From positions 20,368-84,367 of the forward strand of contig JAJVIH010000054.1 in the NCBI GenBank assembly GCA_022072125.1: a stretch of 64,000 nt of DNA, in the 5' to 3' direction. How positions within the stretch are numbered: position 1 is the first letter of the stretch; each line of letters starts with the position of its first letter. The notes under the pieces are model-generated. The model searched no databases. It was given only the letters and a program-made list of their open reading frames with translations, and had not been told where the DNA came from. Source of the DNA: Myxococcota bacterium (GTDB lineage Bacteria > Myxococcota > JAJVIH01). Made by a program: the position numbers and the translations under genes. This document shows, piece after piece, positions 36,090-42,424 of this stretch.

Positions 36090-36425
36090 GACGATCAATC
36101 CTTTTCAGACTCTTGAAGCCAGTATAGAGGCGGTTTTCCACCCCCGCAAATTTAATGAGTCTGATAAATCGCAGCGGTGTTCCCGATGGTGTTCCTGAAC
36201 CGGGCGGAGGCGGGAAGCAGAGGGGGATGCAACCTTTCTCCGGAGGTTGCGGCGCCTGGGAGAAACCGGTGCGGGCCGGATACCCTATGATGGGACGTGT
36301 TTAATGTAATCGGTCATTTGACATTTTGGCGCCGGGAGGCGCTTGACTTGATGCAGTGCGGCAATGTAGCTTGCCTGCTCCGGGTGCCCATATCTTCACG
36401 AATCCAAGAACACAGGGAGCAATCC

Positions 36426-38207
36426 ATGCCGTGTAACAGCAAAATATCGCCATTGTTTCTGGCGATGGTCCTCGCGGCCAGCATTTCCGCCTGCGGGGGA
36501 GACGACAAGAATACCGGAACCAGCGATGGCGGCGGAGTCACCGATGGCTCCGGAAACAATGATCAGAGAGACGCAGGTCCTGGAACCTCCCTGGATGTGC
36601 CGCGTCCTGACACCCAGCCCGCGCCCGATGTGGGAGGAAGTGAAGAGGACTTCACCGACGGCAAGGTCCGCTGCCCCAATCTGAATGCTTGCGCCGCCGC
36701 CTGCCCGGATGGCGATTCAAGCTGCATCCAGAACTGTGTGCAGTCGGAAGGTCCAAGCTGCGGACGCTGCATCCAGGCATACCAGCGCTGTGTTCAGGAC
36801 AGCGGCTGCCTGGTCAACCAGGAAGTGGATGACAAATGCGCGTTTGACAAATGCGAAAAATACTTTGGCACCTGTTTTGGTCCGCGTCCGACCAAGAGCG
36901 ACTGCAAGTCGAACAAGGATTGCACCGACAGCAAAACCTGCGCGGTGGCGCTCGCTCCGGATGGAACCGGTCTGATCACCGCCTGCCAGAAAACCAACAC
37001 GGCCACCGGCAAGACCGGCGACAAATGCGATTCCAACAAGGATCCCAATGATCCGCAGTGCCCCAACTTCGGGCTGGCGGCCGCCTGCTTCCCGCTGAAC
37101 GATGGTTCGGGCGGCGTGTGCAGCGGTATCTGCTCGACCGATGCGGATTGCGGCGGTACGCTGATCTGCACCACGCTCAACATCCGCTACAGCGCCAACG
37201 ACCCGACCAAGACTTCGCCGGTGAGCATTTGCCAGGAGAAGGTGGTCGCCAACTGCAAGAAGAATCAGGACTGCAAGACCGGCCAAGTTTGCGGCGTCCG
37301 GCTGGACAACGCTGGCAAGGCGCTGGTCACCACTTGCGTCGCCCCGGTTGGCAAGCTGGCCGCCGGCGCCGCTTGCAATCCGGACCTGCAGGATCCGAAG
37401 CCCGAAGAGGAATGTGACATCGGCCTCTGCTTCAACAACGGCAAATGCGCCCAAACCTGCGGCGCCGACGCGGACTGCGGCAAGGACAATTCCTGCCAGG
37501 GCATCAACCTGCGCATTGGCGGCACCGAGGCCCGTCCGGAGTTCGGAACCGCGCCCTTCTGTGTTCCCTGCGCGGGTTCGTGCGCTGTCTGCAAATCCAA
37601 CGCGGAATGCCAGAATGGCGAGGTCTGCAAAATCGGCGCGACCATTGACGGCACGCCCGGCGGACGTTGCTCCGCCCCTGAAAAGGATGGTGTGGCTCCA
37701 GGCGAAAAATGCGGCGATCCCAAGAAGGGCGAAAAAGTCTGCGCCAATGATCTGTGCTTCCGTGCGGGAACCTGCGGCGCCCTCTGCGGAAAGCAGGAAG
37801 ACTGCCCGAAGGATTCGCGTTGCGTCTTCCAATCCATCTCCGCGGGCAAGGGGCTGACCCTGTGCGTTCCCTTCACGGGCAGCGCCAAGACCTGCAAGAA
37901 GGACGCGGACTGCACCGGCGGCGAAGTTTGCACCATCTTCCCGGGCGCCGAATCCAACAAGTTCGACACCGTGTGCGCCGCCGCGCAACCCAATGGCGTC
38001 AAGCCGGGTGAAGCCTGCGGCGATCCCGCCACTGGCGGCAAGGTTTGCGCCAACGACATTTGCCTGAACAACGGCAAATGCTCCGCGGTCTGCGACGCCG
38101 ACGCCGACTGCACCGCTGGAACCAAGTGCCAGCCGGTTCCGCTGACCAGCGGCGCCAACGCCCCGACCGTGAAGCTGTGCGTCCCGCCAGCTAACCCCAC
38201 GCCGTAA
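36426..38207 (+). CDS. Cys-rich repeat lipoprotein
   Basis: ATG at 36426 (lipobox SISAC); roughly ten repeats of the type G(E/D)xCGDP..GxKVCANDxC..G.C...C..D.DC; no enzymatic motif. Confidence 0.7.
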   Translation: MPCNSKISPLFLAMVLAASISACGGDDKNTGTSDGGGVTDGSGNNDQRDAGPGTSLDVPRPDTQPAPDVGGSEEDFTDGKVRCPNLNACAAACPDGDSSCIQNCVQSEGPSCGRCIQAYQRCVQDSGCLVNQEVDDKCAFDKCEKYFGTCFGPRPTKSDCKSNKDCTDSKTCAVALAPDGTGLITACQKTNTATGKTGDKCDSNKDPNDPQCPNFGLAAACFPLNDGSGGVCSGICSTDADCGGTLICTTLNIRYSANDPTKTSPVSICQEKVVANCKKNQDCKTGQVCGVRLDNAGKALVTTCVAPVGKLAAGAACNPDLQDPKPEEECDIGLCFNNGKCAQTCGADADCGKDNSCQGINLRIGGTEARPEFGTAPFCVPCAGSCAVCKSNAECQNGEVCKIGATIDGTPGGRCSAPEKDGVAPGEKCGDPKKGEKVCANDLCFRAGTCGALCGKQEDCPKDSRCVFQSISAGKGLTLCVPFTGSAKTCKKDADCTGGEVCTIFPGAESNKFDTVCAAAQPNGVKPGEACGDPATGGKVCANDICLNNGKCSAVCDADADCTAGTKCQPVPLTSGANAPTVKLCVPPANPTP

Positions 38208-38227: not shown

Positions 38228-38264
38228 GACAGAGGCGGCTTCCGGGCCGCCTCTGTCATTTCAT
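38228..38264. terminator. GC-rich stem-loop between convergent genes (putative intrinsic terminator)
   Basis: GACAGAGGCGGC-TTCCGG-GCCGCCTCTGTC (12-bp perfect stem) followed by ATTTCAT; lies between the stop at 38207 and the stop at 38365. Confidence 0.45.
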
Positions 38265-38364: not shown

Positions 38365-38805
38365 TCAGAACGAACCACCCTCCCGCAGGTTGATTCCATA
38401 CTCCACGTACCCCTTCAGGCAGCACAACATATGCGTCCAGCCGCTGCAGTTGCCATAAGAGGATTCCAGGCCCTGGGGATTGTCCCGCCAACCGGATTCG
38501 GTGATCTGGACCATGGTATTTTGGGCGTCAATCGCCTTGAAGAGCATTTCCGTCCGGGTCAGGTAACCACCTTCGGTGGCCTCCCATTCCAGAACAATCC
38601 GCTCGTTTTTCACTACCTCGATCACCTGCACGTCGTGCTCTCCGGGAAACTCAGGAAACGACCACTTGACGGTGACGCCCGTGACCAGCGGTCCGCTGGC
38701 GCTTCTGGTGAAGTAGCCGCTGAGTTTTTCCGGGTTGGCCACGGCGTCGAAGACTTCGGGAACTGGCTTGCGGATTTTCAACTGCACCTGGAATTTGAGG
38801 GGCAT
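38365..38805 (-). CDS. SRPBCC-family protein (AHSA1 / activator of Hsp90 ATPase-like)
   Basis: 146 aa; pattern typical of AHSA1-domain proteins that pair with ArsR regulators (KIRKPVPEVFDAVANPEKL..W). Confidence 0.75.
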   Translation of the reverse strand: MPLKFQVQLKIRKPVPEVFDAVANPEKLSGYFTRSASGPLVTGVTVKWSFPEFPGEHDVQVIEVVKNERIVLEWEATEGGYLTRTEMLFKAIDAQNTMVQITESGWRDNPQGLESSYGNCSGWTHMLCCLKGYVEYGINLREGGSF

Positions 38806-38843
38806 GGCTATTCCTTCCGGAAGTTTGGATATTCCTGATTGTT

Positions 38844-38863
38844 ATGTTATAAAAATATAACAT
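38844..38863. promoter_or_regulatory. perfect palindrome ATGTTATA-AAAA-TATAACAT, candidate ArsR operator
   Basis: 8-bp perfect inverted arms with 4-bp A spacer in the 56-bp AT-rich divergent intergenic region; overlaps the ArsR start codon (ATG 38862). Confidence 0.55.
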
Positions 38864-39191
38864 GTCAAGCGAGGCGGAAGCGGACCTGGTGTTCAAGGCT
38901 CTTGCGGACAACAGGCGGCGCGAAATCCTGGACCTCCTGAGGTCGCGGCCGCGCACCACGGGGGAGCTTTGCCGTCATTTCGGGGATTCGCTTGATCGCT
39001 GCACGGTCATGCAGCATATGGGCGTGCTGGAAAAGGCCGGGCTGATCATCGTGGTGCGGGAAGGCAGGAAACGCTGGAATTACCTTAACGCCGCGCCGAT
39101 CCGGGAGATTTACGACCGGTGGATATCTCCCTATGCGGAGGAAGCGGTCTTGCGCCTGTCCAGACTCAAGAAAGAACTCGAAAGGAAATGA
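38862..39191 (+). CDS. ArsR/SmtB-family transcriptional regulator
   Basis: 109 aa; winged-HTH signature LADNRRREILDLL..TTGELCRHFGDSLDRCTVMQHMGVLEKAGLI. Confidence 0.8.
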   Translation: MSSEAEADLVFKALADNRRREILDLLRSRPRTTGELCRHFGDSLDRCTVMQHMGVLEKAGLIIVVREGRKRWNYLNAAPIREIYDRWISPYAEEAVLRLSRLKKELERK

Positions 39192-39245: not shown

Positions 39246-41867
39246 TCACCCATCCGCGCATGGGCGCACAATCCGCACCTCGCCGCGGACGCCGTCCAGG
39301 TACAATTCGTCGCCGGTGCGGATCACCCGCGTGGCGTTGTCCACGTTGACCACCGCCGGGATGCCGTATTCACGGGCGACAATGCACGAATGTGACAGCG
39401 GGCCGCCCAGTTCGGTCACCACGCCGGATGCGATCAGGAAAAGCGGCGTCCAACCCACGTCGGTGAAGGGCGTGACGAGGATTTCGCCGTGGCGCAGCAG
39501 GCTGGCGTCCTTCAAATCGCGGATGACCCGCGCGGTCCCGCGCGCCTGGCCGGGAGAGCCGCCCAGGCCGTGCAAGGTCTGCCCCCCTGGCGCCGCCCCG
39601 GTCCATGCGGATTCCTCCACCGGCGCACCGCCGAGGATGAAGCCGGCGGGGGGATCGTCCAGAAGCGACGCGGCGTGAAACTCCATGCGGCGCAGAGCGA
39701 TGCGGGTGCGCACATCCTCGCGCAGGTCTCCGGACAGAAAAGCCTCGATCTCCGGCAGCGTCAGGAAAAACACGGCGTCCGTACGGTCAATCAGCCCGGC
39801 GGCATGCATGCGCGCGCCTGCCTCCAGGAAAATTTTCCGGTACATGCCGATACTTTGCGACACATAGTCGCGCAGTTCCTCGCGCAGCCGCATGGATTGC
39901 CGGGTGAAGCCGAGCGCGGCCTCGAACACCGGACGGAGCGGAGCCGGAATTTCCGATCTCAACCGTTGCGTCGCGGCGCGGCGGGCGGCCCTGCGTCGCT
40001 CCTCGATTTCCACCGGGTTGGCGATTTTGGGCTGTTCCACATGCCGCTGCAGGATGGAGAAAATCACCGCTTCGTTTTCAATCCACCGCGGGGTGGATAG
40101 TTCGGCTTCGCGGGCGGCGCGGAAACCGAAGTCGTTCATGAAGGCGTCCATGCGGCGCAGGAATTTTCTTCCCGCCGGCGTGGTTTCCAACTTGCCGCGG
40201 ACATCGTCAGGATCGCTGGCGGCCAGCACCTCCGCGACCGCGGGCATCTGTTTGGCTAGAATCGCCAGTTCCAGCAGCACCAGGCCCGGCTTGGCGCTTT
40301 GCACGGAGGTGAGCCCGGAGATGACCGCGCTCTGCTCGTCGAGCAGCCCATCGGGAAACGCGCGCTTCAACCCCCAGGTCATGACAATGAAACTGGCGAG
40401 GGCGTTGGAAGCGCATTCCAGCATGATTTCGCCGTTCATATTGAAGACGCTGGTCAGATGCCGCGTGAGCCGCAGCAACTCCTCCGGCTTCATGGCGGAG
40501 AGGTCGAGGCTGAAAAAGCGGTCGCGCTCCGCACGAAAAGTACGCCCCCAGGTTTTGGCGCGGGCGGGATTCCACAATTGCGAAGCCGCCAGCCGGGGCA
40601 GGGTGAACGGCAACCGGAGCAGGAATTGCACGGGCGAGAGTTTTTCGTAGTTGCCGCGCAGTTCCTCCAGGCCGCGTCCGCCCCCGGCGCCCAGCAACAT
40701 TTCCGGGCTGAGAAAGGGCAACTGGGATGCGATGGTCATGAACTCGGTCAGATTCAGGTAGATGCGTCCCCGGAAACTGCCGACCAGCCCGAAATCCTCC
40801 GGGACATCCAGGCCAAGCGCGCCAAACGCCTTTTCAAATCCGCGCCGCGAAAAGGAATGGATGATGGACCAGGTTGCGGGCGTGGCCACGCCGGGCAGCG
40901 CCTCGCCGACGTTGACGTTCGACCACACCGTGCGGGGAAAACGCTTGTGGCCCGCGCCCGCGCTGATGGGGCGGGTTTGCAGCACCTGAAATCCGCCATC
41001 CTGGAGGGCCCATTCGATATCCTGAGGTTCCCCCCAGGCGCTTTCGATTTCGCGGCCCAGCCGCCACAATATGGCGATCTGCGCCGGAGTCAGCGATTCC
41101 GATCGCTGGAAGGCGGATTCCACCGGCTGCTTTTCCAGTCCGCCCTTCTCCGATGGACGGAGCAGCGTGGTTTTCGCGGCGATGGAAGAGCGCAGCACCA
41201 TGCCGCTTTCGCGGTCCACGTACCAGGTGTCCGCGGCGCCGCCGCCAACCACGGTTTCACCCAGCCCCCACGCGGCGTTAATGACCATTTCATCGCCGTG
41301 ACCGCTCACGGGATTGCGGGAGAACACCACACCGGCTGTTTTTGCATCCACCAGATGCTGGATGATCACCGCCATGGAATTGGGGTTCGTCACGCCGCCG
41401 CCGCGCAGGTTGTACAGCATGGCGTTGCGGGAATGGAGCGCCGCCCAGCATTCGCGGATGGCTGGCGATAGCGCCTCTTCGCTGGAGATATTGAGCAGGG
41501 TCAGTTGCATGCCCGCGTGGCTGCCCGCGCTGGCGTCCTCGCCGGTGGCGCTGGACCGCACGGCGCAACGTGGTCCGAAGCGGCTGGTCAAGTCGCGCCA
41601 TGCGGAGAGGATGGCGTGTTCAACGCGCGCAGGGATGGGAGCTTGCAAGATGGACTCGCGGAGCGCCTCGAAAGAGGAAAAATCCGGCTCGAAGCTGGCC
41701 AGGAAGAGTTCGTACGCTGCCGTGGAAATGCAGAATCCGGGGGGAACCGGCGCGCCAAACCGGGTGAGGCGCAGCAGGTTGGACGCCTTTCCGCCAAACC
41801 ATTCCGGGAAGGGCGGCTGGCAGGAATGCAGCGAAATGACCAGCGGGGTTTCGATGTAACGCTTCAT
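39246..41867 (-). CDS. PEP-utilising enzyme family protein (PEP synthase / rifampicin-phosphotransferase-like architecture)
   Basis: Start at ATG 41867 (MKRYIETPL); N-terminal ATP-grasp-like pyruvate phosphate dikinase domain (GGKASNL); C-terminal phospho-histidine mobile domain GGPLSHSCIVAREYGIPAVV. Confidence 0.8.
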   Translation of the reverse strand: MKRYIETPLVISLHSCQPPFPEWFGGKASNLLRLTRFGAPVPPGFCISTAAYELFLASFEPDFSSFEALRESILQAPIPARVEHAILSAWRDLTSRFGPRCAVRSSATGEDASAGSHAGMQLTLLNISSEEALSPAIRECWAALHSRNAMLYNLRGGGVTNPNSMAVIIQHLVDAKTAGVVFSRNPVSGHGDEMVINAAWGLGETVVGGGAADTWYVDRESGMVLRSSIAAKTTLLRPSEKGGLEKQPVESAFQRSESLTPAQIAILWRLGREIESAWGEPQDIEWALQDGGFQVLQTRPISAGAGHKRFPRTVWSNVNVGEALPGVATPATWSIIHSFSRRGFEKAFGALGLDVPEDFGLVGSFRGRIYLNLTEFMTIASQLPFLSPEMLLGAGGGRGLEELRGNYEKLSPVQFLLRLPFTLPRLAASQLWNPARAKTWGRTFRAERDRFFSLDLSAMKPEELLRLTRHLTSVFNMNGEIMLECASNALASFIVMTWGLKRAFPDGLLDEQSAVISGLTSVQSAKPGLVLLELAILAKQMPAVAEVLAASDPDDVRGKLETTPAGRKFLRRMDAFMNDFGFRAAREAELSTPRWIENEAVIFSILQRHVEQPKIANPVEIEERRRAARRAATQRLRSEIPAPLRPVFEAALGFTRQSMRLREELRDYVSQSIGMYRKIFLEAGARMHAAGLIDRTDAVFFLTLPEIEAFLSGDLREDVRTRIALRRMEFHAASLLDDPPAGFILGGAPVEESAWTGAAPGGQTLHGLGGSPGQARGTARVIRDLKDASLLRHGEILVTPFTDVGWTPLFLIASGVVTELGGPLSHSCIVAREYGIPAVVNVDNATRVIRTGDELYLDGVRGEVRIVRPCADG

Positions 41868-42424
41868 CCGGTGAACGCCGCGTCGTGAAAAATCTCCGCC
41901 TGGAAAATCTCCATGTGTGGCAGGCGTCCGCGCAGGTCCTCCAGCCGGAAACCGGCCTTGCGGCATGTGGCTTCAAGAAATTCATGCGGCGTCCAGTTGT
42001 ATTCCGCCGCCACCTGCGGCAGCAGCACGCCGCGCCATCCCATCCACTCGACCATCAGGCCGTCGCGTCCCACCGTGATCTCCCCGATGGAATGGATGGC
42101 TTGGCGCGGACTGAGCACGCTGATCTCGACGCCCAGGCCGCCAAATTCATCCGGAGACAGGGGATCGAAACGCGGGTCGCGGGTGGCGGCCGAGCGGGCC
42201 ATGTCCGCCACGGTCTCCAGCAGGGGACGGGAGTCATCAAAGGTTCCAATGCACCCCCGCAATTCGCCGCGGACATGCAGGGTTACAAAGGCGCCGTGCG
42301 GGGCCAGGGTTTCCGGGGGGGGATGGTCAGGTGGAGAAAACCGCTCTCCACGCGCGGCGGCGCAGGCCGCCTGCCGGGCGGTCTCCAGCAGGAACTGGCG
42401 GCTGGAATCAGAGAGCATGCTCAT
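41864..42424 (-). CDS. AMMECR1-domain protein
   Basis: Start at ATG 42424 (MSMLSD..); conserved AMMECR1 block [19 protein letters not shown]; stop overlaps the downstream start by 4 bp. Confidence 0.8.

Follow-up and report, generated by a model that had tools for sequence, protein, structure and literature searches.

A conserved palindrome within overlapping divergent promoters as a probable operator of a widespread ArsR/SRPBCC gene pair

A divergent ArsR/SRPBCC gene pair

The locus lies in a stretch of 64 kb of DNA, which we call the window, and is made of two divergent genes. An ORF on the minus strand (38365-38805) encodes a protein of 146 aa of the SRPBCC/AHSA1 family, the presumed regulated neighbour. 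An ORF on the plus strand (38862-39191) encodes a winged-helix regulator of 109 aa of the ArsR/SmtB family, the presumed autorepressor. The two are separated by 56 bp (38806-38861), and the ORF boundaries agree with the gene order and gap length reported in an earlier note on this DNA.

Both family assignments are backed by profile searches. The regulator exceeds the Pfam gathering scores of HTH_20 (37.9 bits, cutoff 27) and HTH_5 (34 bits, cutoff 22), which places it among the ArsR/SmtB winged-helix proteins. Its sequence matches in the PDB are ArsR-family chains nearly throughout, the best being 3f6o and SrnR (E ~1e-6). The homolog search returned 3237 homologs, including a protein of a Myxococcota MAG with 100% identity. 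The neighbour belongs to AHSA1/SRPBCC according to its match to PF08327 (AHSA1; 31.9 bits, gathering score 22.1), and its PDB relatives are 3q6a and 8es5 (E ~1e-12). The search of NCBIfam profiles assigned no name to it. A putative Shine-Dalgarno sequence, GGAAGGA (38812-38818, minus strand), is found 6 nt 5' of the ATG of the SRPBCC gene.

The pair is flanked by two large genes. One (36297-38207, plus strand) encodes a Cys-rich protein of 636 aa, probably secreted, with many repeated Cys motifs and a weak match to Dickkopf_N. A strong terminator hairpin with a 13-bp stem (38228-38257) lies 3' of this gene, and could also end the SRPBCC transcript. The other (39246-41966, minus strand) is convergent with arsR and encodes a protein of 906 aa with a PPDK_N domain and a C-terminal PEP-utilising mobile domain, a layout found in PEP synthase-like phosphotransferases. 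We considered the PEP-utilising enzyme and the Cys-rich protein as possible parts of the module and rejected both, since neither is conserved beside the ArsR/SRPBCC pair.

A palindrome over the arsR start

The arsR end of the gap is covered by a perfect 8-4-8 inverted repeat, ATGTTATA-AAAA-TATAACAT (38844-38863, both strands), the predicted operator. The sequence, read directly, is as the earlier note described it, with one correction. The right arm had been said to include the ATG of arsR: the A and the T (38862-38863) are inside the arm, and the G is outside. The palindrome thus spans positions -18 to +2 relative to the ATG, and extends imperfectly to arms of 13 nt, with 11/13 positions matching. 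Within it lies the core shared across loci, GTTATA-N4-TATAAC (38846-38861, both strands), whose half-site centres are 10 bp apart. Such a spacing suits a winged-helix dimer bound to one face of the DNA.

The palindrome is the sole match to its own pattern in the 64 kb when 3 mismatches are allowed, and no match was found in 100 shuffles; the 6-4-6 core is also the sole match in the window with up to 2 mismatches. Perfect inverted repeats with 8-nt arms and spacers of 0-10 nt are nonetheless common in the window (28, for a shuffle mean of 19), so the palindrome by itself is weak evidence. What raises it above chance is its A/T-rich composition inside a window of ~63% GC and, above all, its conservation among orthologs.

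The gene pair and its gap are conserved across phyla

We scanned one genome per species and obtained 80 loci, of which ~55 carry orthologs of the regulator (59-75% identity). Their hosts are Myxococcota, Caulobacterales, Rhizobium, Bosea, Roseibium, Acidobacteriota (many of them Pyrinomonadaceae), Bdellovibrionaceae, Gammaproteobacteria, and Leptospira. The same cassette occurs in S. meliloti and P. denitrificans. An ortholog of the SRPBCC gene (46-68% identity) is divergent from arsR in all 53 of the 53 loci with sufficient upstream DNA. The other neighbours are conserved within lineages only and differ between them, which shows that the conserved unit consists of the two genes and the gap between them. 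In some loci of Acidobacteriota (L005, L014, L032), the divergent side has a tandem pair of SRPBCC paralogs.

The earlier note had named the absence of the palindrome from orthologous intergenic regions as an observation that would speak against its reading. We checked for this, and the outcome did not count against that reading. The core GTTATA-N4-TATAAC matches at 11-12 of its 12 positions in all the ortholog loci examined, except in two of Leptospira, and in most orthologs it lies exactly 16 nt ahead of the A of the arsR ATG. Weighted information content delimits a conserved block of 28 bp, (t)atAT-GTTATA-wttT-TATAAC-AT-GTCAAG (38842-38869, both strands). The block is sharply bounded: positions inside carry ~1.3-2 bits, the first spacer bases excepted, and positions outside carry less than ~0.7 bits.

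In the two Leptospira loci (L030, L033), the gene pair is intact and the right arm is degenerate, the sequence being ATGTTATA-TTAT-AACAACAT or AGCAACAT in place of the last arm. The Leptospira SRPBCC gene LIMLP02040 is reported to be up-regulated in a PerRA/B-dependent manner (PMC8638967). We considered it as an ortholog of the SRPBCC gene of the module and dropped it, as orthology could not be shown.

Two of the ortholog loci come from bins labelled Bathyarchaeota (L027, L040). They carry a bacterial-type ArsR/SRPBCC pair with its palindrome, which could result from mis-binning or gene transfer. In these loci the ATG is displaced from the palindrome, by 11 nt in L027 and by 83 nt in L040, and is accompanied by its own SD-like sequence. 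The palindrome is thus kept where the ATG has moved off, and the start codon does not explain it.

A scan of metagenomes for the exact palindrome pattern returned 120 loci, 65 of which have an ArsR ortholog, an SRPBCC ortholog, or both within 400 nt of the palindrome. When only contigs with a GC content of at least 0.55 are taken, the exact palindrome is within 400 nt of the module in 52 out of 56 cases.

Two overlapping promoters predicted from an ortholog

Transcription starts of the gene pair have been mapped in S. meliloti 1021, where a dRNA-seq TSS atlas (Additional file 4, PMC3616915) lists those of the arsR ortholog SMc02639 and of the SRPBCC ortholog SMc02638. The SMc02639 start, at 1182519, is the first base of the start codon and has a -10 element TAAAAA; it is classed as an lmTSS, by the authors' definition one that coincides with the first AUG nucleotide (PMC3616915). 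The SMc02638 start, at 1182549 and thus 30 nt away, has a -35 element TTTGAC, a spacer ATGTTATGTTTTTATAAC that is the palindrome, and a -10 element ATATTA (PMC3616915). The same table lists SMc02638 as a 'hypothetical transmembrane protein', an annotation that looks outdated, and places an antisense TSS at 1183083, just past the 3' end of the SMc02638 CDS (1182571-1183053) (PMC3616915).

The TTTGAC of S. meliloti sits at the same place as a TTGACA in the window. The mapped starts may guide the reading of the window, by way of an ortholog that is ~60% identical and belongs to another phylum. On the plus strand, the predicted arsR promoter has as its -10 element either TG-n-TATAAA (38845-38853) or TAAAAA (38850-38855), the latter in the -12 to -7 register of S. 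meliloti, and its predicted start is the A of the ATG (38862), as in the lmTSS of the ortholog. Transferring the S. meliloti layout to the window puts this -10 at 38848-38855. On the minus strand, the SRPBCC promoter has its -35 element TTGACA within arsR codons 1-3 (38863-38868), as indicated by conservation among orthologs and by S. meliloti. Its predicted -10 element, placed by analogy with S. meliloti, is CATAAC (38841-38846), 16 nt from the -35, a weak element with 4/6 matches; by homology, the start is expected at ~38832-38834. A consensus promoter scan of the window called no sigma-70 promoter, only the terminator of the upstream gene, and the promoter placements consequently derive from homology to the orthologs.

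These promoter elements are frequent among the orthologs. TTGACA is perfect in 48 out of 52, and a minus-strand -10 element with at least 5/6 matches at a spacer of 16-18 nt is found in 41 out of 52. On the plus strand, the left arm and the spacer form a TGnTATAAT-like element with at least 5/6 matches in 47 out of 52.

The arsR gene of the window lacks an SD sequence, has an in-frame TAA 4 codons upstream, and has a correctly placed -10-like element. By analogy with S. meliloti, we predict that its mRNA is leaderless and starts at the A of the ATG. Codons 2-3 of arsR are TCA AGN nearly everywhere, even though the third residue can be either Ser or Arg and TCA would not be expected in GC-rich hosts. 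This argues that the constraint acts on the DNA.

The palindrome and the recognition helix change together

The recognition helix of the regulator, DRCTVMQH(L), is invariant across orthologs. Among relatives at a greater distance (41-56% identity), the helix SRFGVMKHL goes with an upstream ATGTGAC-N6-GTCACAT and the helix SRFSVMQHL with an upstream ATGTGATA-N4-TATCACAT. A change of recognition helix is thus accompanied by a change of palindrome, which is what one would expect if every protein bound the palindrome upstream of its own gene. Loci of the SRFGVMKHL clade with palindromes of the ATGTGAC-N6-GTCACAT type are L056, L058, L062-L067, L072, L076, and L077; in those from Actinomycetota the palindrome often lies between a TTGAC -35 element and the -10. 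The other variant occurs as ATGTGATA-AAAA-TATCACAT in L071 and L073.

The palindrome overlaps the core promoter and the start of the regulator's own gene, which is the position of an autoregulatory operator, and it is conserved in ortholog loci and co-varies with the recognition helix, as an operator should. From these sequence comparisons, we consider it probable (roughly 0.78) that the palindrome is the operator of the dimer of the adjacent ArsR protein, embedded in two overlapping promoters that face in opposite directions and would be repressed together. The earlier note had pointed to the geometry of an autoregulatory operator for a dimeric winged-helix repressor. That proposal gains support from the conservation among orthologs, the co-variation with the helix, the overlap with the mapped promoters of S. 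meliloti, and the likeness to Rv2034 described below. Our analysis goes beyond it in suggesting a leaderless arsR mRNA, a palindrome that would serve as the spacer of the SRPBCC promoter, and a -35 element that would lie in arsR codons 1-3. A literature search found no binding or expression data for the ArsR protein of the window or for any ortholog.

The switch could work as follows. The left arm and the A/T spacer would supply the -10 element of a sigma-70-type arsR promoter, with transcription starting at the A of the ATG. In the opposite direction, the SRPBCC promoter would use TTGACA as its -35 element, the palindrome as its spacer, and a -10 element that lies at the left arm or immediately past it. 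A single bound ArsR dimer would cover -18 to +2 of the arsR promoter and ~-31 to -12 of the SRPBCC promoter, and would therefore repress both genes. A signal, probably not a metal, would release the repressor and switch on both genes, following the classical derepression logic of ArsR-type regulators.

Alternative explanations of the palindrome

The most serious alternative is that the block is only a compact promoter pair, whose symmetry stems from -10-like elements on the two strands and to which no repressor binds. Each arm, read inward on its own strand, is TGTTATA and resembles TGnTATA; the block is flanked by the mapped starts of S. meliloti; and bidirectional promoters with pseudo-symmetry are common among prokaryotes (bioRxiv 10.1101/2020.01.31.928960). 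We still regard this explanation as unlikely. The right arm, TATAAC, holds ~2 bits per position across phyla even though it occupies positions -6 to -1 of arsR and the SRPBCC spacer, two places where RNA polymerase constrains the sequence little. The palindrome is kept in loci that have lost the -35 element and the overlap with the ATG (L027, L040, L052), and those of the paralogs co-vary with the recognition helix. Moreover, starts 30 nt apart imply that the -10 elements do not coincide on opposite strands. Part of the conservation of the block must nevertheless reflect promoter function, which sequence alone does not fully separate from contacts with the repressor. A site for some other regulator, global or GntR-type, instead of the neighbouring ArsR, seems to us still less probable. 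Unrelated loci do have sequences of a similar kind beside GntR-type regulators, the 12-bp palindrome ATGTTATAACAT for example, but these GntR-linked sites differ in architecture, and from phylum to phylum the palindrome stays with the ArsR gene in changing gene surroundings.

The region 38834-38873 folds at -8.9 kcal/mol (z-score -3.7), as might an RNA hairpin in a 5' leader that controls translation or stability. We give this idea very little weight because both S. meliloti mRNAs are without the palindrome, one starting at its edge and the other 12 nt beyond. There is no match in Rfam either. In 25 distinct versions of the 20-mer, each of the 13 changes in the arms affects one side and disrupts the pairing, and none is compensatory in 8 pairs. 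Since the changes in the arms are always one-sided, the element behaves as a DNA site and not as an RNA stem. As for an A/T-rich repeat arising by chance in a short gap, the high number of 8-nt-arm repeats in the window (28, where ~19 are expected) would allow it, but more than 50 loci from genomes and 65 from metagenomes have the palindrome conserved at the same position by the same gene pair. These comparative data refute a chance origin, to which we attach practically no probability.

Comparison with known systems

Among studied systems, the nearest precedent that we found is Rv2034 of M. tuberculosis, an ArsR-like dimer that represses its own gene and whose DNase I footprint, over the perfect palindrome CCGTAAGT-N4-ACTTACGG, reaches from -30 to +3 (PMC3338718). 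Rv2034 is insensitive to seven metals, shares a transcript with the SRPBCC (polyketide_cyc2) gene Rv2035, and also acts on the distant targets dosR and phoP (PMC3338718). Like Rv2034, the module of the window combines a small ArsR-family regulator, an 8-N4-8 palindrome at the regulator's own promoter, and an adjacent SRPBCC gene, a likeness of geometry and partner class. The regulator of the window has no canonical metal-site motifs, and Rv2034 is insensitive to the seven metals. The two systems differ in the sequence of the operator, in the orientation of the genes (a co-directional operon in M. tuberculosis, divergent genes in the window), and in their targets, as distant ones are known for Rv2034 and none were seen for the ArsR family of the window.

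The SMc02639/SMc02638 pair of S. meliloti is the same module, with an ArsR ~60% identical to that of the window, and its cassette, ATGTTATAAAAACATAACATGTCAAA, differs from that of the window at 2 of 26 positions. Its SRPBCC promoter has a better -10 element than that of the window. It is characterised by genome-wide TSS calls only: we found no study in the literature of its regulator, operator, or inducer. A wider search covering ArsR with SRPBCC or AHSA1, SMc02638/SMc02639, and 8ES5/3Q6A found nothing functional.

The classical metal sensors of the ArsR/SmtB family, such as SmtB, CzrA, CadC, and ArsR, bind imperfect operators of the 12-2-12 type. They share with the module the winged-helix fold family, a dimer on an inverted repeat that overlaps the promoter, autoregulation, and derepression on a signal. 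In contrast, the partner in the window is neither a transporter nor a reductase nor a metallothionein, but an SRPBCC protein. SdpR of B. subtilis, an autorepressor of the ArsR family, is controlled by being sequestered to SdpI, the partner with which it is co-regulated. It sets a precedent for signalling to an ArsR-type repressor via a partner protein, although the partner in the window is a soluble SRPBCC protein instead of a membrane immunity protein.

Pseudo-symmetric bidirectional promoters resemble the module in that a single short, symmetric, A/T-rich segment gives rise to divergent transcription, and a polymerase bound one way excludes the other (bioRxiv 10.1101/2020.01.31.928960; PMC12825309). 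The promoters of the module have separate -10 elements, and the starts of the ortholog are 30 nt apart. The symmetry is best explained by a site for a dimeric repressor.

We thus see the cassette as a well-supported but ordinary switch of a known kind, in an unstudied and very widespread ArsR/SRPBCC subfamily. Soil and host-associated bacteria very commonly carry pairs of ArsR with AHSA1/SRPBCC, the subfamily has more than 3,000 homologs, and Rv2034 is the only studied example that we found for such pairs. Defined here are a sharply bounded operator/promoter cassette that is near-identical across phyla, a leaderless mRNA predicted for the regulator, and a putative -35 element overlapping the first codons of arsR. 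Codons 2-3 of arsR (TCA AGN) would be a case of a promoter element constraining a coding sequence at the DNA level. The cassette also offers a ready reporter and binding probe with which to look for the inducer in tractable hosts, S. meliloti, P. denitrificans, Rhizobium, and Myxococcus among them.

The signal and the role of the SRPBCC protein

We searched the regulator for metal-ligand motifs and found no CXC in alpha3, no Asp/His/Glu site in alpha5, and no N-terminal Cys. Helix 3 (ELCRHF) has one Cys, and the C-terminal helix is without His. The regulator scores below the NCBIfam cutoffs for the metal-sensing subgroup (HTH_metalloreg NF033788, 52.5 versus 55) and for SdpR-type proteins (NF033789, 55 bits versus 100), even if the latter is its best NCBIfam match. 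The lack of metal-site motifs and these low scores make a non-metal inducing signal likely. Among orthologs Cys47 is invariant and Cys37 nearly so. Given this conservation, the signal may possibly be thiol-based.

The SRPBCC orthologs keep the typical AHSA1 positions, but cysteines are not among them. In several paralog loci (L058, L062, L064, L071, L079), arsR is followed by an AHSA1 gene as an operon, and two loci encode fusions of an ArsR HTH_20 domain with AHSA1/SRPBCC (L069:2920-3768, 282 aa; L077:2956-3816, 286 aa). These operons and fusions argue for a tight functional link between the two proteins. Together with the strict co-occurrence across phyla, they suggest a more speculative arrangement, in which the SRPBCC protein would be the ligand sensor: it would bind a hydrophobic small molecule, contact the ArsR dimer, and lift the repression, as a split one-component switch. 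We consider this idea rather unlikely, and the present evidence fits a simple effector role equally well.

A probably self-contained switch

The earlier note had suggested searching for the palindrome elsewhere in the genome to define a regulon. That search was carried out within the window and in the ortholog, promoter, and metagenome sets described here, and revealed no further operator. There is no second site within the 64-kb window, either for the palindrome (up to 3 mismatches) or for the core (up to 2 mismatches), and each 6-kb ortholog locus has exactly one site. In the portion of the S. meliloti TSS table that was covered, none of the other promoters has one. Where the exact palindrome occurs in metagenomes at a distance from the module, the DNA is either low in GC or part of a separate GntR-linked system with a 12-bp palindrome. 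Across the window, the 6-kb ortholog loci, the S. meliloti promoters covered, and the metagenome contigs, we therefore favour a self-contained switch of two genes.

The separate system has its own conserved site, ATGTTATAACAT-TATAACAT, which holds the 12-bp palindrome and was found at L105:1639, L108:519, L113:643, and L173:5491, and also in L095 and L136. The site lies between hydrolase-like and Asp/Glu-racemase-like genes, downstream of a TTGAC box. GntR-type regulators are encoded nearby in L095 and L136, and the site is probably the operator of another regulator.
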